NCBI GenBank assembly: GCA_964016885.1
Contig: OZ024754.1
Coordinates: forward strand, 43,896,001 to 43,960,000
Length of the DNA stretch: 64,000 nt
DNA from: Eledone cirrhosa
Lineage: Eukaryota
Direction of reading: 5' to 3'
Under the pieces are notes generated by a model. That model saw nothing but the letters and a program-made list of their open reading frames with translations, made no database searches and was not told where the DNA came from. The stretch's first letter is position 1. The number at the start of each line of letters is the position of its first letter. A program made the position numbers and the translations under genes. This document shows, piece by piece, positions 3,037 to 55,056 of the stretch.

Positions 3037-6000
3037 TTATCTCATTAATTTGGGTTTCTTTTCTGGAGGAATTTTGGTTCCTGAAGAATTCTGTTTGTCA
3101 TCAGTTTTATCAATTCGATTTTCCACTTTCACTTCTGATCTTTCATCTGAAAAAGCCAAGTAATTGTTATTCAATAATTTCCGCTGCCACAAGCAAAGTA
3201 AAACAACCTACTTAGCAACCCTGTCTATCTGAATTAATTTCCCCCATAAACCTCACACTGTCAACCCCACAAGCAAATCAAACCCCAGTACTACATTTTC
3301 CTGATCACAGGTTGGTATTAGGAAGGGCATACAGCTGTAAAATACCCAGCCAAATTTACAGTCCTCGCTGAAGCAAAGAGCAACATGCCAGACTTGCCTC
3401 CTGGCATGGCCAACCTCTTAACCCAACAAGCATGGAAGGATGGACACTAAACGGCAATGATGATGATGTTAGGAACTTACCTTAAATCATGAATGGTATA
3501 TAATGGTAAGTTTTATTTGCTAAGGGATCATTGAAGAAGAAGATATTTTTCAAGAAATTACCTTTTTGATCTGGCTGTGCAGGAGCTGCAAATCTAGGAG
3601 GGAACTTTTTACCAAGTTCAGAAAGTAAGAGATCAACCCGTTGCCGTTGAAATACCGAACTTGGTTCCTCTTTTTTCTTTGTTTCTTTTACTTTGTTTTT
3701 TTCTACAAAAGGAACTAAGAAAGTCATTTAGTAAGTTTACAGAAGGAACAAAATATTGGTTGGTCTTAATTAAAAATTGTTAATATTTAATTTCTATGGA
3801 TTACAACTGAGTTAATAATATTGTGTAAGTTATTGATAGAGATCAATTGATGAGAAAATAATATTGTGTAGGCTATTGATAGAGATCAATAATATTGTGT
3901 AAGTTACCTGTATCTTCTTTATCTTTGAATTCCCACCAATATCCTTTTGATGGATGATACCGAGCATAACTGAGGGCTGCAAAATATGTGGGAAAGATAT
4001 TGGTTATATGTGGGAAAAATATCTGTAATATGTGGAAAATATATCGGTTACATGTGGGATAGATATCAGTTATATGTGGGAAAGATATCAGTTATATGTG
4101 GGAAAGATATCTGTTACATGTGGATGTGGTATCTATTGATGGTTGCTGTTTACAATTAAGATACCTACAATGAGGCTTTTGTAGATTAATCATAAAGTCT
4201 CACCTTCTGTAAAAGCTGACTGCAAACTGTGAACAGTGTTTAACTGGAAGAGAAAGAGAGAAGACCCAGTTATTAGGAACACATGTGGGTTACGTTTATA
4301 CAAGAGGGAGGGTGGAGAAGGAGAGAGATAAGATTGAAATCAACAGTTTTGAGAAATAAATGTGATATTAACCCTTTAGTATTTAAACTGGTTGTATCTA
4401 GCCAGAATTCTCTCACCTCTTTCTATTCAAACCAGCCATAACTGGCTGCTCATACTTATATTAAGGTATGGTTTTCAAAATATATACTATCAAAATCTCG
4501 TAGATTCGATATTATGTGAGAAAATACAATAGTAAATATAGAGTAATGTAAATGCTAAAGGGTTAAATGATAGTATGTATGTATTATGATGTGAAAGGGG
4601 AAAAATAAATACTAATTACCATTCTAGAATTGACCACTGAACCTAAATCTGGTGCCTGGTAAACAATACCAGCACTGATGTAATAGTCAGCAAGAGGTGT
4701 AACTGGAAAGAGAAAGATTTAAAAGATTTGGAATATATAAAGAACAAAACAAAATGGCACCATGATTTTTGGTAATAAGGTTACACAAAAGACCCTTCTC
4801 AAACAAGGAAATCACAGCAATATGTAGATGAGAAATTAATCTTGGGTTGGGGAGTGGCAATGTTGTTTATGTATGACAAAGAATATTTTGATGAGATATT
4901 TACCTTGGGTTGGAGAGTGCCGATGTTGTTTACGTATGACATAGAGTATAGGTTCCTGGACATGGAGAAGCTCATATTCCAAGCCAGTCATTGAGCTGGA
5001 ACGACAAAATTACAGAAATTTCACCAGACGAAGACTTACAGAATCAAAGAAATGAAAATGATAAATAAAATCTACCAAAGAACAACAATATAAATTGAGA
5101 AGATGACACGATAAACAACAGTGTCATATTGTGGTACAAACATGATATATAACTGGTAATCAGTCACATATTGTGGTACAAACATGATATATAACTGGTA
5201 GTCAGTCACATATTGTGGTACAAACATGATATATAACAGGTACAGTAGTCTCATACTGTGGTATAAACATGATATAACTTTTTTTTTATTGACCACAAAT
5301 GGGTTTTGAACTCAGAGCACCAAAACAAATACTACAGAGGTTGATGAAGGAAGGTATTTCTGTGTGAACAAACTTTGTGAAGTATTGGCTAGTTATAGAG
5401 ACAGCCAGAGGTTTTCACTGAAAATAAACATAAAAAGGTAAACAAGAAAAACACTTCACCCCCAAACCAATACAGAAATAGATGAACATAACACCTGTCT
5501 ATGACGAGGATCGAAGTTAGAACTTACCTTAATTGCTCAGGGTTTAAGTGCTGCATTTTCACATTCTCGTTGTTGCATGTTCGATCATAGAAGGGGTTGG
5601 TTCGTTCAGAAAAATAATCCAACACATTGGAGGAATTTAACAATGGAATCCATGCACTGTTTTGCCAGGAGATTCCAAGAGATTCTGAGAAAATAGGAAA
5701 AGTAGAACATCAGTCACTTTTATGGACCTGTAACACCTGATGACTAATATTCTATGGGCTTTTAACACCTGATCACTAATACCCCATGGACCTGTAACAC
5801 CTGGAGTTATAGGGGAACTGAAATAATGTAGGCCATATTTTGGGCATTTTAAACCTGGTAAAGACCATCCCTTCTCCAGGTCTGAACACAGTTAATTTCT
5901 TCCATAGAAGGAGAAAGAGAGTGTGTGTGATAGAGAGGGAGTGAGGAAGAGGGTGTGTGATAGAGGGAGCGAGTGAGGAAGAGGGTGTGTTTGTACATTT

Positions 6001-6308
6001 ATATATATCTCCAAATCTTTAAAATATATATACACAATATATTTCCAATGGTTCTGGCTTCTAATCCTACATTTGTCCCTGTAAATAGTTATTTCTCCAA
6101 AGTTACTCATACAATCCTGTGTCGTATGTAAATAAATACTGAATATTTTATGTAATTATATCCTAGAAATAAATCATTAAAATATCCTTTTTTATCTTTA
6201 ATCAGTTCCACGAGTCAATAATCAACATAAACTATAGGGTTTCTCTTATGCAAGCCATAAATCTATCAAAACACAAATTTCCCCAGTTTATATGATTGTT
6301 CATATAAT

Positions 6309-6343
<35 letters not shown>

Positions 6344-9300
6344 CGATATTAAACAAATGGAAATTACATTTATAAAACCATATTTATTTCATTATATATA
6401 TTTCAGGGATATCATATTAAAAATATGGTATGCCCTCTTCAGATAAAATACAATATATAGACAGCTTTATAAATAAATTTGACATACCTTAGAGTTCACA
6501 ACTTCCATTTAAAAGTTGTTACGGTAGTGAAAATGTTAAGGACGGTTATAAAGAAAGACGGAGAGAAAAAAAGGAAAAAGAAAAAGGAGAAAAGAAAAAG
6601 AAAGAGCGGAAGGTGAAGAAGATGAAGAAATGTATGTAAAGAGAAAATCACCAAATGAGAGATCTATGAGGGAAGGGGGTACTGTAATTATTCATTTGTT
6701 TATTTATTTATTTAGTGTTAAGGATACGGGGAGAAATAAAAACAAAATAAAGAGAGGTAGATCGAGTAATATCTATTATACGAGGTAGGGGAGGGGTGAT
6801 ATACAGGAGATAGAGTTAAAACAGCCGATATAAGAGTAGAAGGGAGGAGGAGAGGAGATATACTTAGAAACAAAAATGATAGTTTTAAAATATTATGCTT
6901 CATCAGTCTATCAATTCCTATGAATTATACTGTAACCATCAATATTCATGAATGAGACACATATCAATAATGTGTGAAAAAATAGTGACTATATGTTTAG
7001 TTTAAAAAAGAATATCTCCTCTGCGCAGAGGTCACATGTCTCAGAGGAGGAATTAAAAGGAATCCCTCTTGAGACTATATTCCAAACCGTCGAATATCCA
7101 ACGTTATCATGTTTAAGTTGCCAGAGTAAGCCTGATAGTGATGTTGAAGATTTTTTGTTTGGATCTGTGAAAGAATTCTTGTGATTATTATAGCAAAGTT
7201 TAAATTGTGTCGAGGTGGAACCAACATAATTAAAAGAATTTAATTCTTTTAATTATGTTGGTTCCACCTCGACACAATTTAAACTTTGCTATAATAATCA
7301 CAAGAATTCTTTCACAGATCCAAACAAAAAATCTTCAACATCACTATCAGGCTTACTCTGGCAACTTAAACATGATAACGTTGGATATTCGACGGTTTGG
7401 AATATAGTCTCAAGAGGGATTCCTTTTAATTCCTCCTCTGCGCAGAGGAGATATTCTTTATATTAAAATCTAAAAATTCCCTTAATTTACGGACCAATTT
7501 ATTCAGTTGCTGCAGACATAGATTGAACTCAACTTTTAAATATAAATATAAGTTTAAAATGTAATATATTTACTTAAGACTTTTAATTATTTTAGAAAAC
7601 TTGGCGATAAATCTTTCGATTCCTTCAATTCTTTAAACCTTCTTCATGAATATATAATTAATAATTGTTTCTACTATTGGCACAAGGCCAGAAAATTACC
7701 CAGTACATTACTGGTACTTTATTTTATCGACCCCGTAAGGATGAATATATAATTAATAATGTAATTAAACTACCTTAAAACGGTGATGATCCAAATCTAT
7801 TGAATAACATTTTTATGCTAGATAAACTTCTAGAATAAATATAAGAGCATCTGTAGAACAACCGAGCATCCTAAAGTTTTTTTTTAATGATTTCTGCTAA
7901 ATAAGTTTGGTGAATAATTTTGGTTTTGTTTGCTTTTGACTCTGATTGCTTCTAATAAACTTGGCAGTATTGTCAAATAAATTGGAGGGATTGATTGATA
8001 TGCTGGGCACACTGTGTTTTTATTACGGCCCTAGATATTCTGGGGAGGAAAATATTCTTGGCGTTTTTAATATTTTTAATATATTGATATCTGTTCTATT
8101 CTATGTTTGTACGATATTCATGTAAGAAAGGGCAAGAATATTATTATTATTAATAATGTATATTTTATGTATATATATATGTATGTACACTTATGTGTAT
8201 GGTAAAATCTTTTTTAACGCAATGAAGAGTTCCATGTGAAATAAAAATTTACAGAGCTGATCATGTAAACTCACATGTGTCTATAATGTCAGTTTGAGAT
8301 AACCTTCTCTTTTTCTTTCTCTTTTCTCTTTTTTCATGAAAATACATATATACCTATGTATTCCAGTATTTTTTTTAAGGTTTTATCTCAGATTTTGATT
8401 ATAAACCTATGAATTTTTTAAACTAAACATATAGTCACTATTTTTTCACACATTATTGATATGTGTCTCATTCATGAATATTGATGGTTACAGTATAATT
8501 CATAGGAATTGATAGACTGATGAAACATAATATTTTAAAACTATCATTTTTGTTTCTAAGTATATCTCCTCTCCTCCTCCCTTCTACTCTTATATCAGCT
8601 GTTTTAACTCTATCTCCTGTATATCACCCCTCCCCTATCTCCCCCACCTCGTATAATAGATATTACTCGATCTACCTCTCTTTATTTTGTTTTTATTTCT
8701 CCCCGTATCCTTAACACTAAATAAATAAATAAACAAATGAATAATTACAGTACCCCCTTCCCTCATAGATCTCTCATTTGGTGATTTTCTCTTTACATAC
8801 ATTTCTTCATCTTCTTCACCTTCCGCTCTTTCTTTTTCTTTTTCCTTTTTTTCTCTCCGTCTTTCTTTCTAACCGTCCTTAACATTTTCACTACCGTAAC
8901 AACTTTTTAAATGGAAGTTGTGAACTCTAAGGTATGTCAAATTTATTTATAAAGCTGTCTATATATTGTATTTTATCTGAAGAGGGCATACCATATTTTT
9001 AATATGATATCCCTGAAATATATATAATGAAATAAATATGGTTTTATAAATGTAATTTCCATTTGTTTAATATCGTAAAATACTCCAAAATCTGTTGAGT
9101 GCTTTTATATCAGTTATAAAATATTTACTCGTTGTAACCCAACATTTTAAATAAAACTTTTGCATATATATATATATGTATGTATATATATACATACATA
9201 TATATATACATATATACACAGGGTGTCCCCAAAAATGTATACACACTTTGATTACCCGTACAGGTAATATTTATTAGAATGCTGTTGATGTGTGTATACA

Positions 9301-9918
9301 TTTTTTGGGGGACATCCTGTATATATGATTTATCAATCCTGGACTCCCAAACTAAAATACATTCTAAGTTATTGCTGGTACTAATACAGTGTAATCTAAG
9401 AATGACAGACATATATATATATAATATAGGAATAGGCTACGTAGCCGGTTCCGGCAAAATAGACAAACATGTCTTTTAAGATTATTTTACCGGTAAACCC
9501 TAAAGGCACGCAACTCTAGCCTCATATATATATTGTCACACAAGAATGTCAGTTATGACCAACATTAGAGTTGGTGTTATTTAACGATGGTTTAAACCGG
9601 TTTTATTTCTTTTATATCGAGGTGGAGAATGTGATGTTGTGATGTTCATCATAGAGTTATTTTTATTATTGTCTTAAGTGAAATAATTTAAATTGATAAT
9701 TTGAGAATATTAATGTAAATATTTCCGGCGTGTTTACATTTGTTTCTTAAATATAAATATAAATATTTTAGGTTCATAGATTAACGTTTACTAAATGGCG
9801 AGGATTATAAATAAAAATATTGTTGATACACTGAGAGATAAATGGAAATTAAAGCAGTTAGCAGCGAATTATATATTTTTATAGAATAAAATATAAAACA
9901 CGAACCTTTCTCAGCCAT
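3037..9918 (-). CDS. MED6: Mediator of RNA polymerase II transcription subunit 6 (8 coding exons)
   Basis: Exons (minus) 9906-9918, 5528-5684, 4904-4995, 4620-4702, 4204-4243, 3908-3976, 3562-3702, 3037-3146, all GT-AG with consistent phases. Translation: [44 protein letters not shown]...[11 protein letters not shown]...[24 protein letters not shown]...[10 protein letters not shown]...[13 protein letters not shown]...[10 protein letters not shown]. The 13-nt first exon was chosen on phase compatibility and is less certain. Confidence 0.95.
4369..4566. mobile_element. piggyBac-like MITE (TTAA|CCCTTTAG...CTAAAGGG|TTAA), multicopy family
   Basis: Terminal inverted repeats with TTAA flanks. Other copies at ~15147-15358, 25776-25977, 27885-28027, 30869-31085, 37351-37845, 44899-45113, 46185-46412, 50221-50430, 51668-51877 and 63326-63410. 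Confidence 0.8.
6385..6450 (-). ncRNA. Candidate minimal type-I hammerhead ribozyme (sense within MED6 pre-mRNA)
   Basis: Exact reverse complement of 8969-9034: stem I UAUUUUAU/AUGAAAUA, core CUGAAGA, long stem II, GAAA, short palindromic stem III, AUA cleavage triplet. Confidence 0.55.
8969..9034 (+). ncRNA. Candidate minimal type-I hammerhead ribozyme
   Basis: TATTTTAT-CTGAAGA-GGGCATACCATATT-TTT-AATATGATATCCCT-GAAA-TATAT-ATA^-ATGAAATA. All core nucleotides are present; stem I has 8 pairs including one G-U. Confidence 0.55.
9219..9319. mobile_element. Tc1/mariner-type MITE (~100 bp)
   Basis: TIR CAGGGTGTCCCCAAAAATGTATACACA / TGTGTATACATTTTTTTGGGGGACATCCTG followed by TA. Confidence 0.75.
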
Positions 9919-10365
9919 TCTTTCGTCTTTCTTCGGGACATACGGTAGAAGTCGGCACTGAATATAATTAATTGGTTATTTCTAGTTTTATTTTATTTTA
10001 TTAAAAAATTACATTTTATTCCGTAATTTAAACAACTTTAATAGAATAATTTATATTTGTTCATATCGATATTCTTATTAAAATATTAATTTTTTTATTG
10101 GGAGCATAAATGTTGTTCTAATTTGTTAATATTACTTGTTTTATTGTATTTAATTGAATGTATATAATAATAAATTACTTTTAAAATTAAACAAAATATT
10201 TCAATAATGAAAATATAAAAGAATGTAGCTTATTATTTAATTCTATTAAAAGTTATAAAAATAATATTTTAACTGCGGGATTGTAATTTCTCTGTTCAAC
10301 TTCCGGCGTTAATCTTCCTACATTTTTTGTTTTGTTCTGAAATTGTTTCAGAAGAGGATTTAAAG
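9919..10365. promoter_or_regulatory. Putative bidirectional promoter MED6/ERH
   Basis: Divergent inferred start codons about 450 bp apart; ETS-like ACTTCCGG near 10299-10306 and DRE-like TATCGATA at 10064-10071. Confidence 0.65.
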
Positions 10366-13300
10366 ATGGTTTGTTCATTTCCTTCATAACTCGATTTACA
10401 AAATATTTATTTTATTACATTATCTTACCAAATCTATCAACTAATTTATTATTTAAACCTCATCAAATTGTTAAAATAATTCTCTCTCTCTCTCAACATT
10501 TACTTCTAATGAAACAATGGTGTTTTTTTACAGGATTTACTTTTAACGATTATTTTCGTCCTGATTATAGTCGGGACGTTTAAATTTATGTATGAATCCA
10601 AGAAATGAAACCTAATAACGACCCATTAACCTAGTTTCTGCCCTCCTCACCATTATTCTCTCCATTCTCTCCACCATAAGATACTCTACACTTGGTTCCC
10701 TGTCCAACATTAACCATTTATTTCATCTTCACACACCATTATAGGACTTTCTTAATTAATAATTAATAATCAACAACAATATATTTATCGAGGTTTTTTT
10801 TTTAAATTTCTTATAATGAAATTAAACCCCAGCAAAAGAAGCAACGTGACTTGGTAGTTTATGTTCTCTCCAATATATTAAACAATTACTAGTTATAGTT
10901 TGTTGTCAATAACTAATATTTAAGTATCTAATATGTATTTCGGTTCTTCAATATCGTAGAAATATAGATGATAATTCTTTCGATTAAAGAAAATAAAGTT
11001 TGTGATACTAGAGAACCTGCGAAGTCGTTCAACCATCCAATTAGGGGTATCAACTGATATACCATGTAACATTACAGGGTTTAAAACTACGGAATTTGGG
11101 AAAGTTGGGCCTTAGATATATTCTGGTTTAAAATACAAAAAAAAGACGATGTGTTTCATCATAAATATCTGCTCAGTGATAAACAAGAGTGAGGTTTGTA
11201 TCTCGTATTGATTTCACCATCAGGAGGTGGGCTCTTGTGAAACTAAAAGTCTTTGATTCCCAGTCGAAGTTTACTTTTACCTACGATGTTAATTCATGTA
11301 TAAAACAAAGTTTAAAATAACACCACAACAGGAAGTGCTGACGTTTCTTTCTAATGATTTTTTTTTTTTAGACAAACTAATACACAAGTAATGGAGGTGC
11401 GTGGTCTAGTGGTAAGGTTGTTGGGTGTGGAGGTGTGTGGTCTAGTGGTAAAGGTGTTGGAGGTGCGTGGTGTGTGGTCTAGTGGTAAGGTTGTTGGAGG
11501 TGCGTGGTCTAGTGGTAAGGTTGTTGGATGTAGAGGTGTGTGGTCTAGTGGTAAGGTTGTTGGATGTGGAGGTGTGTGGTCTAGTGGTAAGGTTGTTGGA
11601 TGTGGAGGTGTGTGGTCTAGTGGTAAGGGTGTTGGATGTGGAGGTGTGTGGTCTAGTGGTAAGGTTGTTGGAGGTGTGTGGTCTAGTGGTAAGGTTGTTG
11701 GATGTGGAGGTGTGTATGGTCTAGTGGTAAGGTTGTTGGATGTGGAGGTGTGTGGTCTAGTGGTAAGGTTGTTGGATGTGGAGGTGTGTGTGGTCTAGTG
11801 GTAAGGTTGTTGGATGTGGAGGTGTGTGGTCTAGTGGTAAGGTTGTTGGATGTGGAGGTGTGTGGTCTAGTGGTAAGGGTGTTGGATGTGGAGGTGTGTG
11901 GTCTAGTGGTAAGGTTGTTGGATGTGGAGGTGTGTGTGGTCTAGTGGTAAGGTTGTTGGATGTGGAGGTGTGTGTGGTCTAGTGGTAAGGTTGTTGGATG
12001 TGGAGGTGTGTGGTCTAGTGGTAAGGTTGTTGGATGTGGAGGTGTGTGGTCTAGTGGTAAGGTTGTTGGACTTACTATCATAATGTCTTCGGTTCCATTC
12101 CTGAGTTGTGTTCTTGAACAAAACACTTCATTTCATGTTGCTCCAGTATACTCAGTTGAAAATGAGTACCAGTAATAGCTGGGGAGTTGACTCTGAGATG
12201 GACTGGCGTCCTGTCCATGGAGGTTGGGGAGAGTCTTGTACTCTCAGTCACTGCTTCATGCCACGGAGGCAGACTTTAATTTAAATTTTGCTACGGATAA
12301 TAGCGGGACTAAGACACTGGAATAACCACGCACCCTTGCAGGCAATAATAATATTTTATAAAACACTTAATTGTCATTAATTTCATTACAAAGGAAAATA
12401 ATAATAAAAGAAAGTTAATTAATCGTTGGAATTAGTAATCAACTTCCCGCTGTTTAATTGGGAAACTTAATACTTATTTAGTAGTTTTAATTTTCAGTAA
12501 TTTAACTTCCATTTGTAGAAACTTCATTAGAAACTAACGACTCTTGTTTTATTTTTCTTGTTCCTGGCATTAATTAAATTAATACTTAACTTTAATATTT
12601 CGAGCTAATGACAGATCTTCTATATTGTTACTGAAATTGTGAGAAATAACAGCCAAATCCCCCTCAGATTATACATATGCAACCACATACATGGAATGCA
12701 TTGGATGTGTTTTATCACGGCACCAACACTAGGGATATTGTTATGTCCTGTCAACCTTTTTCCTAACAGCAACCACTTTACAGAGTGTACTGGGTGTGTT
12801 TTATGGCACCAACACTAGGGATATTGTCATGTCCTGTCAACCTTTTTCCTAACAGCAACCACTTTACAGAGTGTACTGGTTGTGTTTTATCACGGCACCA
12901 ACACTAGGGATATTGTTATGTCCTGTCAACCTTTTTCCTAACAGCAACCACTTTACAGAGTGTACTGGGTGTGTTTTATGGCACCAACACTAAGGATATT
13001 GTCATGTCCTGTCAACCTTTTTCCTAACAGCAACCACTTTACAGAGTGTACTGGGTGTATTTTATGCTGGCACCAACACTAGGGAGGTTGTAAGATTATT
13101 GACAGACCTTATGTATGCTGTTACCTGTTGAATGTCAGCCGTTAGAACTGACAAATCGCGGTGTAAGGAAGGGGGACTTTCATTAAACCTGAATCACAGG
13201 CGTATTTTCACAGTACATTACATCCATACTATAACATTATTGTTACAATACATTATATTACATCCATATAACATTATATTACATCCATACTATAACATTA

Positions 13301-19038: not shown

Positions 19039-22000
19039 TTATCTGCCGAGGTTTGGGAATTTCAAATGAACAGTTTTACACAGAATTTGTAGGATACGGA
19101 GCTTGGGCCATGAATGCTGTTGCAATAAAGATGAAAAGTTAGGTTTTAGAAAGCTGAAACTATCGAAGGTTATTATAAATAGTAAAATGATAAGAATTGT
19201 TACCTCTCAGTCCTAATTGGTTGATCACAGCTTTAGTTAATCTCTCTACTACATGTGTGTATGGTCTTGTAACAATTGATGGAGTATTTTTTAATCTGGC
19301 AGAGCTCATACCCTCTCAAGGTCTGAACAAAGCTGATCTACAACTTAATACCCACAACAGATGTAGACTTTATGATGTCACAACTTAATACCCACAACAG
19401 ATATAGACTTTATGATGTCACTACAACTTAATACCAACAGATGTAGACTTTATGATGTCCCTACAACTCAATACCAACAGATGTAGACTTTATGATGTCC
19501 CTACAACTTAATATCAACAGATGTAGACTTTATGATGTCTCTACAACTTAATACCAACAGATGTAGACTTTATGATGTCCCTACAACTTAATACCAACAG
19601 ATGTAGACTTTATGATATCACTACAACTTAATACCCACAACAGATATAGACTTTATGATGTCACTACAACTTAATAGCAACAGATGTAGACTTTATGATG
19701 CCCCTACAACTTAATACCAACAGATGTAGACTTTATGATGTCCCTACAACTTAATATCAACAGATGTAGACTTTATGATGTCTCTACAACTTAATACCAA
19801 CAGATGTAGACTTTATGATGTCCCTACAACTTAATACCAACAGATGTAGACTTTATGATGTCCCTACAACTTAATACCAACAGATGTAGACTTTATGATG
19901 TCCCTACAACTTAATACCAACAGATGTAGACTTTATGATGTCCCTACAACTTAATACCAACAGATGTAGACTTTATGATGTCACTACAACCTAATCCCCA
20001 ACCGAGAACAGAACATTGTGCTATGTATTCTGGGAGTTTACTTACTGTGAACAGGGGCAGTATCCCGCTCCAGACCTTGTTTGGTTTCTGAAGTAACAGG
20101 GCTAAGTAAAAGATAATGTGATGCTGGAAAAGAAATCAAGTGAAAATTAATTAAAAACTAATTTAATTGATGACAATGAAACATGTAATTAAAATATAGC
20201 AACTCATCAGCAAAACCTAAAATATTTCTACTTTTATGATGGTGATGCTGGTGGTGGTGTTGATGTTGGTGATGGTGGTGCTGATGATGGTGGTGGTGAT
20301 GATGATGGTGGTGATGATGGTGGTGGTAGTGATGATGGTGGTGGTGGTGGTGGTGATGATGATGATGGTGGTGATGGTGGCGGTGAAGACAGTGATAGTG
20401 AATGTTGTAAAGAAAAATAAGAAACTTTTTTTTTTAAATAAGTGCCAAAGAATGGACTTACCATTTGGACCCCTTCAAGAATAACAATGTCTTTGATGTG
20501 AGTCATATCAATAAACTTAGTGGTGCAGTGGCCAAACAGGAACTTAGTCTCAATCTGGACCCCAATGGCGGTAAGAAACAGGACAGACTCTGTAATGTGT
20601 GTTGAAACATGTAGAAAGACAGAGAAGAGACAGTTTTTGGTTAATACATATTAGTAATTGTTTCTACTTTAGGCACAAGGCCAGCAATTACCCCAGTGTA
20701 TTACTGGTACTTTATTTTATCGACCCCTTAATACATAATAATTGTCTACTGTTGGCACAAGGCCAGCAATTACCCCAGTGTATTACTGGTACTTTATTTT
20801 ATCGACCCCTTAATACATAATAATTGTCTACTGTTGGCACAAGGCCAACAATTACCCCAGTGCATTACTGGTACTTTATTTTATCGACCCCTTAATACAT
20901 AATAATTGTCTACTGTTGGCACAAGGCCAGCAATTACCCCAGTGCATTACTGGTACTTTATTTTATCGACCCCTTAATACATAATAATTGTCTACTGTTG
21001 GCACAAGGCCAACAATTACCCCAGTGCATTACTGGTACTTCATTTTATCAATTCTGTAAGGATGAAAGGCAAAGCTAACCTCGGTGGGATTTGAACACAG
21101 AACGTAAAGGGTCATAACTCTATGCTGAAAAACATGGCGTCCGACGCTCTACCGATTACTGCCAATCCACCGCCCGTTAATACAGGTAACATGACACAGT
21201 AGTTATTATATTTAACAATACATGTTACTTGATAAAGTTATGATAAAAATGATTTCATATTAAAACCGATGTTCGATGTTCAAATGTATTTAATGAGAGA
21301 AATTGATTGATGCTGTCACCTGTCAGAACCTTACGGTAGAGTTTGACAACAAAAACAGCCAGGAGTATAATGAAGAATATGTATAAACTACTGTCATCCT
21401 GTAAAGATAGAAAATATTACATTAGAATACATTAACATATAAATATATATACACTTATACATACCACTACATGTGCACATATAAATATATATACACTTAT
21501 ACATACCACTACATGTGCACACATAAATATATATATATTTATACATACCACTACATGTGCACACATAAATATATATACACTTATACATACCACTACATGT
21601 GCACATATAAATATATATACACTTATACATACCACTACATGTGCACACATAAATATATATACATTTATACATACCACTACATGTGCACACATAAATATAT
21701 ATACATTTATACATACCACTACATGTGCACACATAAATATATATATATTTATACATACCACTACATGTGCACACATAAATATATATATATTTATACATAC
21801 CACTACATGTGCACACATAAATATATATACATTTATACATACCACTACATGTGCACACATAAATATATATATATTTATACATACCACTACATGTGCACAC
21901 ATAAATATATATACATTTATACATACCACTACATGTGCACACATAAATATATATATATTTATACATACCACTACATGTGCACACATAAATATATATACAT

Positions 22001-52443: not shown

Positions 52444-54987
52444 TGCTATAAAAACTACCAAAGCTTCATAAAAAACAGTATTTATTTCCAATTCCATTGA
52501 ATGGAACAAACGAGAGTTAAATTTCAGCCAGTATTTTAAGTACAGTACCTGTTCTCCAAAACCAGGTAGGTACAATACCTGGTCCCTACAACCAGGTAGG
52601 TACAATATCTGTTCCCCACAACCAGGTAAACTGAGGTATATAGAATTGTTCTTAGAAACACAATAAAACACCTGCTGCAGGTATAAGCTCTTCTAAGTCT
52701 TAATGTCATTTCAACCTACACAGAGCTAAATATTAACCCTTTCATTACCATATTTCTAATGAAAGACACTGTCTATGTCTTTAACCCTTTCATTACCATA
52801 TTTCTAATGAAAGACACTGTCTATGTCTTTAAGCCTTTCATTACCATATTTCTAATGAAAGACACTGTCTGTCTTTAACCCTTTCATTACCATATTTCTA
52901 ATGAAAGACACTGTCTATGTCTTTAACCCTTTCATTACCATATTTCTAATGAAAGACACTGTCTGTCTTTAACCCTTTCATTACCATATATCTAATGAAA
53001 GACACTGTCTATGTCATTAACCCTTTCATTACCATATTTCTAATGAAAGACACTATCTATGTCTTTAACCCTTTCATTACCATATTTCTAATGAAAGACA
53101 CTGTCTATGTCATTAACCCTTTCATTACCATATTTCTAATGAAAGACACTGTCTGTCTTTAACCCTTTCATTACCATATTTCTAATGAAAGACACTGTCT
53201 GTCTTTAACCCTTTCATTACCATAGAAAATAGCCCCTATGGCAAGCAAAGAAATTGTGCAACTGCCCAGCACTGTATATTTACCTATGGAGACCTAACAA
53301 TTTATATAAATGGTTTCATGATCCAACCACCAGTGTTCTCACCCTTGATAATCAAAGACAGATCATACATCTGAAGGAGTTTCTTTTTTCACTCTCCAAC
53401 GAGGCTTATTTGACTTTAATATGCTTGCCATACGTAGTTACGCCACTGTATGCACCCCAGTACTTGACTGGTACTGTTTCATCCACCCCAGAATACAGAA
53501 AGGTAAAGATGACTCCTGCATGATTTGAACTCAGAATCTAAAGAGACAGAACCGAATGCTACAATAATAATGGTTTATGATTTAGGCACAAGACCTACAA
53601 CATTGGGAGAGGGGGAAAAGTAGATTAGATCGACCCCAGTGTATTACTGACGTTAACCGAAACGCTGACGTTAACCGAAACGCTGACGCTGATGTAGATG
53701 TAAATACTTTAGCTTCTACTGAGGGTCGCCGTCAAGGCTAACAAACTGAAATAACCGATAGAGTAGAATACCGCGTGGCAAATAGCCGAAATAAGGATGA
53801 AAGGCAAAGAAAGCTAACCTCGGTGGGATTTGAACTCAGAACGTAAAGGGCCATAACTCTCCCCTCCCCAGATTAAACAACGGCGAAGTTGAAAAAAGGC
53901 GGAATTTCAATTCAGAATTAAAGACACGTAACTGAATACTAAACAATAACATTTTATATGTGTACTGACGAAAACCGGATATAATATATTGTATGTATCA
54001 TATGTCACATACAATGGTTTGTAATTATTTCTACTATTGGTACAAGGCCAGCAATTTGGCGGGGATTGGAAAGTCGATTAAATCGACCCCAGTGCATTAC
54101 TGATACTTTATTTATCGTCCCCCAGTGCATTACTGCTACTTTATTGATCGACCTCCGTAAGGATGAAAGGCAAAGCTAACCTCGGAGTTCAAATCCTGCC
54201 GAGGTTAACCTTGCCTTTCACCATTACGGAGTCGATAAAATAATAATGTACCAGTAATGCACTGGGGTGATTGCTGGCCTTGTGCCAAACGTATAAACAA
54301 CTATAATACATTGTATATGACATAATCTGAAAGTTATGGAATCACTAAGTGATAACCACAGTAAGGTTCTCAATACATTAGTAGAGTATATACAAAGTTT
54401 AATATAAAAATGGATTCTACAGGACTAGAACTGTTTCATTCCTGATGATTTCCTTCGAATGAAACAGTTCTAGTCCAGTAGAATCCATTTCTATATTAAA
54501 TCTTATATATATATATATATAAATCAGGAAAGAAGAGTGACACGGTTTGCTATATATATATATATATATATATTAAAATAACAGATTAAAGTTTAAGCAA
54601 AGAGTAGCTGCTTTCACCCTAAGATCCCATTAAGGGTGAAAGCAGTGATATTTTGCTTAAACTTTAATCTGTTATCTTAATAAATATTTGCTCTAGGGTT
54701 CTTATATATTTGATATATATTTATCTTTATCGAGCCCTCTTTGGATTTTAGTCTTCACATTTATCCACATAAGTGGAAGGGATATTTAATTTGTTGGAAA
54801 TTCAACAAATATAAATGACTACCCAAGGAATATTCAACTGATAGGGTATGTTTTCCTTGGTTATGTCAACATCTATAAAACACTCTTTGTATTTTATCTG
54901 ATGAAAGCGTACCAAAGTTTTTGGTACCCTTGAAATATATATAGAATAAATATGGTTTTATAAATATAGTTTCCATTTATTTAATAT

Positions 54988-55056
<69 letters not shown>

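Follow-up and report, generated by a model that had tools for sequence, protein, structure and literature searches.

Penelope-like elements (PLEs) of the Hydra clade, which have a C-terminal endonuclease (EN+), are the closest described relatives of the element studied here (Craig et al. 2021, PMC8557442; e.g. Hydra-1_Obim and Penelope-13_HM). As far as they are described there, these elements have in common with ours a single ORF coding for a reverse transcriptase (RT) plus, at the C terminus, an endonuclease of GIY-YIG type, with DKT, CxCX5C, and CxxC and CxH around E and N, as well as (TA)n targets and a 3' type-I hammerhead with a palindromic helix III and mostly a non-G-C pair at 10.1-11.1. 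For Penelope-13_HM the same source lists an inverted 5'-truncated copy with a hammerhead on each strand, G-U first pair included, and Hydra-1_Obim is a separate family from ours, with a different hammerhead and a protein that shares the motifs but, by eye, differs widely. The minimal, palindromic PLE hammerheads described by Cervera and de la Pena (2014, PMC4209133) are likewise of type I, with a long helix II, a short palindromic helix III, a presumed dimeric form and low activity, and the same report already noted opposite-strand hammerhead pairs ~100-700 bp apart in Schistosoma; metazoan PLE hammerheads are reported to cleave poorly and as dimers only (PMC4209133; PMC6765202). The Poseidon PLE of Anolis carolinensis (Frangieh et al. 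2024, PMC11167929) belongs to a different clade, and its account describes two features that recur here, two RT start sites that define a tail and AT-rich targets, together with the extension of both target strands, which offers a model for a foldback with one tail; its hammerhead overlaps the start of the ORF, whereas ours ends ~180 nt before the ATG of tandem copies. Retrozymes (PMC7229834, PMC4918200) are also hammerhead-bearing retroelements, but they are described as non-autonomous and non-coding and the family here encodes an RT and an endonuclease (RT-EN). Published accounts have not settled what PLE hammerheads do (PMC8557442, PMC11167929).

The DNA analysed, referred to as the window, is a 64-kb stretch in which MED6 lies on the minus strand, with PF04934 matching two exons and further exons at about 4700-3500. 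We infer from the reading phase that MED6 intron 1 spans 9905-5685, a 13-nt ATG exon splicing in phase to 5684, and the intron would then contain a foldback insertion with one hammerhead motif on each strand, the minus-strand copy being in sense with MED6 as an earlier note on this DNA had said. The features are as follows:

5528..5684, minus strand: MED6 exon 2 (PF04934, E 1.8e-9)
6312..6341: (TA)15 target tract on the left
6344..7009, minus strand: the element's 3' end in inverted orientation, adjoining the inverted endonuclease piece and without a tail
6385..6450, minus strand: identical hammerhead motif of the inverted copy, MED6-sense, predicted cut after 6393 on the minus strand
7007..7240, minus strand: inverted endonuclease piece, residues 627-707 (translation, tblastn)
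7236..7564, plus strand: C-terminal GIY-YIG-type endonuclease part, residues 627-740 of P0002 (tblastn, frames)
7242..9163, plus strand: 5'-truncated Hydra-clade PLE copy, matched by blastn to the full-length copies L062, L064 and L066, with endonuclease remnant, a 3' UTR of ~1.4 kb, hammerhead, the last 41 nt and a tail
7666..7740, plus strand: high-copy repeat fragment inside the 3' UTR, which we take to be SINE-like, between 20-nt direct repeats (7646-7665 and 7741-7760)
8969..9034, plus strand: type-I hammerhead motif at the 3' end of the element, predicted cut after 9026
9076..9163, plus strand: one-sided tail of 88 nt, which in tandem copies runs on ~49 nt to the ORF ATG
9164..9216: (TA)n-rich target tract on the right
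9906..9918, minus strand: likely MED6 coding exon 1, 13 nt (ATG 9918, GT donor 9905; placed by phase)

We read the two motifs, with a probability of about 0.88, as the hammerhead that an autonomous Hydra-clade PLE, young and high in copy number, carries at its 3' end; they are duplicated here through insertion of a truncated together with an inverted copy and are predicted to be inactive passengers at this locus.

Direct sequence comparison showed the 66-mer at 8969-9034 (+) to be the exact reverse complement of 6385-6450, and because the two motifs are located in duplicated arms they count as one piece of evidence and not two. Stem I of the plus-strand motif (8969-8976/9027-9034) has 8 pairs, one of them U-G, and is followed by CUGAAGA (8977-8983), a stem II of 14 positions (8984-8997/9001-9014) with G-U as its first pair and two mismatches (C8987xC9011 and C8991xA9007), GAA (9015-9017), a palindrome (9018-9025) and A9026 as H17. 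The core positions C3-A6, G8, A9, G12-A14, A15.1-U16.1 and H17 are all present, which reproduces the mirror-image pair with a full core of the earlier note and confirms that the motif has all listed hammerhead elements, self-cleavage being a prediction. That note had also placed the ribozymes as caps at both ends of the insertion, which is incorrect, as 41 nt lie 3' of each motif and the plus copy has the 88-nt tail beyond.

The plus-strand copy has an endonuclease remnant that is 90-94% identical to P0002 over residues 627-731 (tblastn) and is frameshifted by a 16-nt deletion near 7440, with a stop codon at 7562-7564. Both strands carry such a remnant, and the inverted piece at 7007..7240 forms with 7242-7440 a perfect 199-bp hairpin centred on 7241. 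The inverted copy runs from 7240 to 6344 with a ~950-nt deletion (the equivalent of 7460-8413 is missing), and the inverted arms, 6344-7009 and 8414-9075, differ by 3 substitutions across 652 aligned bases, which suggests that the insertion is very young. The internal deletion junction of the foldback occurs once in the genome, compared to 34 occurrences of a 38-mer from the arm, and the foldback structure has therefore not spread as a unit. Judged from its sequence, the foldback is a one-off insertion between (TA)n tracts, composed of a truncated copy of an autonomous element and an inverted, internally deleted copy. The 16 nt absent from the plus copy at 7440 lie between short direct repeats and are kept in the inverted copy (7026-7041), suggesting that the inverted arm was not copied from the plus copy as it now stands. 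Contigs of two runs (kind unrecorded) that cover 7461-11350, one arm only, have a high summed depth over the motif and also show a form without the SINE-like insert; they are uninformative on cleavage or splicing.

A genome search with the endonuclease of the central hairpin gave 47,245 candidates, 150 of which were scored, with 91-100% identity among the matches listed, and ten regions chosen for long frames out of these 150 were fetched, all ten containing frames of 656-771 codons. P0002 is a 740-aa single frame in which an RT (YRDD) and, C-terminally, an endonuclease of GIY-YIG type (IIY...YVG...R...H...E...N) were identified by motif; it has RWR in its N-terminal part at the aligned place of RWK (present in 8 of 12 aligned homologs), CxCX5C in the linker, CDLC before E and CRH after N, and by eye no CCHH was seen in it. 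SDKT (DKG modified to DKT) is found in all 10 long frames. There were 37 homologs of P0002 at 30-40% identity, the named ones from Argonauta and Elysia; the Argonauta homologs, along with a SINE motif, point to a cephalopod as the probable host. Pfam gave no matches for P0001 or P0002 and a PDB sequence search nothing for P0002, and one of five P0002 homologs scanned had a sub-threshold GIY-YIG match in Pfam (E 0.043), so that the identity of RT and EN rests on motifs and on by-eye likeness to published Hydra proteins. In 5 of the 10 regions the ORF has a hammerhead on either side of it, both on one strand, giving a unit length of 3820-3924 nt (~3.85 kb) in these five tandem copies and bearing out the association with Penelope RT/GIY-YIG ORFs that the earlier note had proposed to look for. 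The position of the hammerhead near the 3' end of the element and the (TA)n tracts adjoining both ends of the insertion are as in the Hydra definition. Shared ORF variants are concentrated at third codon positions (135, 40 and 27 at positions 3, 1 and 2, with singletons at 136, 73 and 85), which suggests that the source copies are under purifying selection. By its motifs the family is assigned to the Hydra clade of PLEs, and it is autonomous and recently active.

The exact 50-nt ribozyme variant of the locus has 413 matches in the genome and the A10.1 form 1,863, and two patterns with the core left free, which take in the wider family, have 3,561 and 12,145; reversed-pattern controls gave 0 matches for all four. 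Among the first 100 listed of the 12,145 matches, 68 lay in outward-facing pairs, 10 had a same-strand neighbour, 2 were convergent and 28 were solo (the classes overlap, and partners missing the pattern go unseen), and the two-strand pair is the family's commonest insertion form. The spacing of paired motifs ranged from 132 to 4,945 nt, and the 88-nt tail was at one end only in 29 of 38 pairs examined, at both ends in 2 and unclassified in 7. PLE-type features found in the family are 5' truncation, partial tandems (pLTR), the inverted 5'-truncated copy and the one-sided tail. One ribozyme per strand, as the earlier note had it, is present at the locus, but this arrangement is a by-product of a common inverted-copy insertion of the kind listed for Penelope-13_HM.

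In full-length tandems, two same-strand hammerheads ~3.85 kb apart could pair their AUAUAUAU palindromes to form a double hammerhead, which, by analogy with other PLEs, would cut the tandem transcript to unit length, probably weakly or with the help of the element's protein. A dimer of the motif is predicted to form intermolecular stems I and III (MFE -26.2 kcal/mol) but with a slipped stem II, and a weak and likely dimer-dependent type-I hammerhead of a PLE, with a palindromic helix III, is what the earlier note had expected. For the foldback, both nicked strands of the (TA)n target probably prime reverse transcription, as the biochemistry of Poseidon suggests, and two fixed RT start sites, at 9163 and 9075, would produce ends that face outward, just one of them tailed; a possible alternative route is that a single cDNA was copied by snap-back. 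From the cut site it is a further 49 and 137 nt to the ends of the insertion, and the template would therefore have been uncut or circular RNA.

Variants common to 4 or more of the 100 sampled copies (19 anchor columns left out) occurred at none of 11 core columns, at 28 of 50 columns in the upstream flank and at 3 of 38 in the downstream flank (Fisher p 0.012 for core against pooled flanks, indicative only as the copies are related). Within the motif they were found at N7 (G 42, T 30, A 28), in loop 2, at the stem II mismatch at 8991, at the stem I pair 8975-9028 (G-U 84, G-C 14, A-U 2) and at 10.1/11.1. When 12 motifs of the family and its sister families were aligned, these being related and hand-picked from pairing-based scan matches and so subject to selection bias, two-sided changes were seen at 7 of 19 pairs, including the helix III palindrome, which changes from AUAUAUAU to AUGCGCAU. 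Covariation cells numbered 26 compared to 9.6 in shuffles (reached by 0 of 500), though the pair count was reached by 32 of 500 shuffles and the pair-type count by 497. In the sister families the stems have changed while the core is retained and helix III is still palindromic. It is likely, from these alignments, that the motif is under selection, with a core that is invariant across subfamilies and stems that covary. The core exceeded the upstream flank in conservation, as the earlier note had predicted along with the covariation, but not the downstream flank, which is about as conserved as the core, and part of the constraint may therefore serve RT recognition and not catalysis. At the fourth position of stem II (8987 x 9011) two mismatched pyrimidines face each other in 12 of 12 aligned motifs and in 100 of 100 copies, a count partly set by the search as 9011 lies within its anchor; the kept mismatch is possibly a tertiary or protein contact.

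The 10.1-11.1 pair was A-U in 50 of the 100 copies, A-C in 33, A-A in 9, G-U in 6 and U-U in 2, and in none was it G-C. By our own count on the published Hydra table, 18 of 25 families are also without G-C at this place (14 U-U, 3 G-U or extra G, 1 U-C; PMC8557442), and the G-U pair of the locus is therefore not a sign of decay; PMC544870 gave no data on substitutions at 10.1-11.1. The earlier note had drawn low activity from this G-U pair, and low activity is plausible, not through departure from a family G-C pair but through a slip of register. In nearest-neighbour predictions, which ignore the non-canonical pairs of the core, the G at 10.1 of this subfamily shifts stem II so that the catalytic A9 is paired with U11.1 (probability 0.95 as a monomer, 0.70 as a dimer), two A-U copies stay in the hammerhead register at 0.5-0.75 when monomeric, and A-C and A-A copies occupy the active register at 0-0.24. 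Given this low occupancy, and A-C or A-A in 42 of 100 copies, the ribozyme could be barely functional family-wide.

A chance likeness to a hammerhead in AT-rich repeat DNA might be suspected since an Rfam scan of 5500-10000, a check that the earlier note had put forward, returned 42 matches at E<=10, none of them to a hammerhead family (only hairpin-driven miRNA models, every one below its gathering score), and since the folding z-score of the motif is unremarkable (-0.98) and the MFE fold of the monomer differs from the hammerhead fold. A type-I descriptor, written only after the motif had been seen, nevertheless matched twice in the 64-kb window, at the two known motifs, and not at all in 30 block-wise dinucleotide shuffles; together with the covariation, the invariant core and a position that is the hammerhead site of all published Hydra elements, this leaves chance hardly any probability. 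The note's own reading, a non-autonomous Penelope- or retrozyme-like unit, and with it a MITE or foldback DNA element that has a ribozyme on either arm and moves as one unit, would fit the long inverted arms, the lack of an intact ORF in the window and the TA-rich flanks, but is extremely unlikely, as what lies inside is the 3' end of a PLE with coding capacity, the junction occurs nowhere else in the genome, the spacing of paired motifs varies and the tail is one-sided. A retrozyme is ruled against by the endonuclease remnant, the autonomous RT-EN family and the unique junction, and a MITE or foldback DNA transposon is largely refuted by the absence of symmetric fixed termini or uniform copies.

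It is possible, though on balance doubtful, that the motif, although by descent a true PLE hammerhead, no longer cleaves and persists as a structured RNA signal that RT needs to bind or initiate. In 44 of 100 copies 10.1 and 11.1 form no pair, A9 is predicted to be buried in the G10.1 subfamily, which yet has its 413 identical copies, and the conserved downstream flank points the same way; in Anolis Poseidon, moreover, the account of the work reports cleavage only with protein, hammerhead mutants that leave insertion in vitro unaffected and no RNA-seq ends at the cut site (PMC11167929). Against a motif kept only as a signal, the 11 catalytic positions have no shared variants while N7 takes three letters, and sister families keep the core and the palindromic helix III despite their changed stems. 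The thermodynamic models that predict a buried A9 also ignore the sheared pairs G12-A9 and A13-G8. The earlier note had further suggested that the minus-strand copy could cleave the MED6 pre-mRNA, with the complementary arm as a mask. Its core is intact and in sense in the inferred intron, and helicases or editing could perhaps open the duplex, but cleavage to any meaningful degree, with the arm acting as a switch, is very unlikely: the antisense arm is transcribed ~2.5 kb before the motif and would zip it up, the descriptor scan of the 64-kb window found one motif per strand and no same-strand partner for a cis dimer, and the register is predicted to be slipped. The masking itself agrees with the predicted folds, as in the MFE structure of 6300-9200 the opposite arm pairs with every one of the 66 bases of the motif, whichever strand is folded, and the 66-bp duplex has -99.5 kcal/mol compared to -9.8 for a local fold of the motif. 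The insertion is also one of thousands, very young and without sign of locus-specific selection. Long intronic dsRNA is a more probable consequence than cleavage, and our preferred reading of an inactive passenger copy of the PLE hammerhead is kept.

When set beside the published systems this is a new family, while its clade, ribozyme kind and arrangement were already known. No description of it was found in searches of papers, though it may be catalogued in Repbase or Dfam and closer motifs may sit in the supplements of PMC4209133 or PMC11167929. It differs from the Hydra elements as published in having RWR for RWK, a unit of ~3.85 kb compared to generally <3 kb (a descriptive figure), a 1.4-kb 3' UTR, a stem II of 14 positions compared to 3-7 and >12,000 hammerhead matches, and both its unit length and its 88-nt tail exceed the published Hydra and PLE values, the tail being compared with a usual 30-40 nt in the Poseidon comparison (PMC11167929). 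For the hammerheads of PMC4209133, G10.1-C11.1 is described as highly conserved and an extra base as confined to the 5' side, whereas here 10.1 and 11.1 both vary freely, and our motif also stands apart from them by the pyrimidine mismatch that all 12 aligned motifs keep at the fourth position of stem II. More tentatively, it might be a massively amplified, still active Hydra family with a distinct hammerhead subtype (free 10.1-11.1, long mismatched helix II) whose subfamilies range from competent to misfolded. If so, a subfamily predicted to be unable to fold the core, with >400 identical copies, would be a natural test of whether PLEs need cleavage to transpose, and foldbacks would provide host introns with long, near-perfect dsRNA hairpins by the thousand, and ADAR with a large pool of substrates. 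ORF singletons have A>G at 2.25 and T>C at 2.09 per kb (p 0.75), thus with no ADAR footprint in the copies and no sign of edited RNA having been retrotransposed. Subfamilies differ at the core-adjacent pair (A-U, A-C, A-A, G-U) and each is amplified, so that activity can be compared with copy success, and the rule of one tail per pair gives genomic support, in a second clade, for RT initiation at two sites. The locus itself is ordinary, one among thousands of foldback insertions, and sequence searches of Rfam, Pfam and PDB all miss an element with >12,000 matches in its genome.

Several further repeats were seen beside these copies. The SINE-like fragment of 7666-7740 is also inside or beside the L062, L065, L066 and L069 copies, at differing positions, and in the window it makes up an 82-nt tandem array at 20663-21049; its presence in element copies is possibly due to capture by template switching. 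Neighbouring ORFs include a second Hydra-type family with 41% identity to P0002 (L067, 7155-9500, minus strand) and non-LTR retrotransposons (L061, 749-3606, and L070, 1660-4281, both minus strand). Of 20 loci with a sister motif of the L013 type, one (L152) has it ~1.4 kb downstream of an 85%-identical endonuclease end and another (L159) next to an inverted ORF of 76% identity, and the tandem pair at L169 had no Hydra ORF between its motifs. A DNA search with the AUGCGCAU sister motif, of a kind that passes over very common words, yielded no candidates. Several unrelated type-I motifs, whose palindromes differ and which have U-U, U-A or G-U at 10.1-11.1, are found a few kb or less from these insertions (L003:2732, L005:952/869, L018:2871, L069:8170, L087:1718, L106:703 and L146:742), which suggests nesting of many PLE families within shared (TA)n tracts. 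In the window, a small high-copy MITE-like element with 38-nt inverted ends (9209-9327) adjoins the right (TA)n tract, and a relic 3' end of a sister family at 54890-55020 (+), which ends in (TA)n, carries a hammerhead-like motif of its own with an intact core and a broken 3' strand of stem I.
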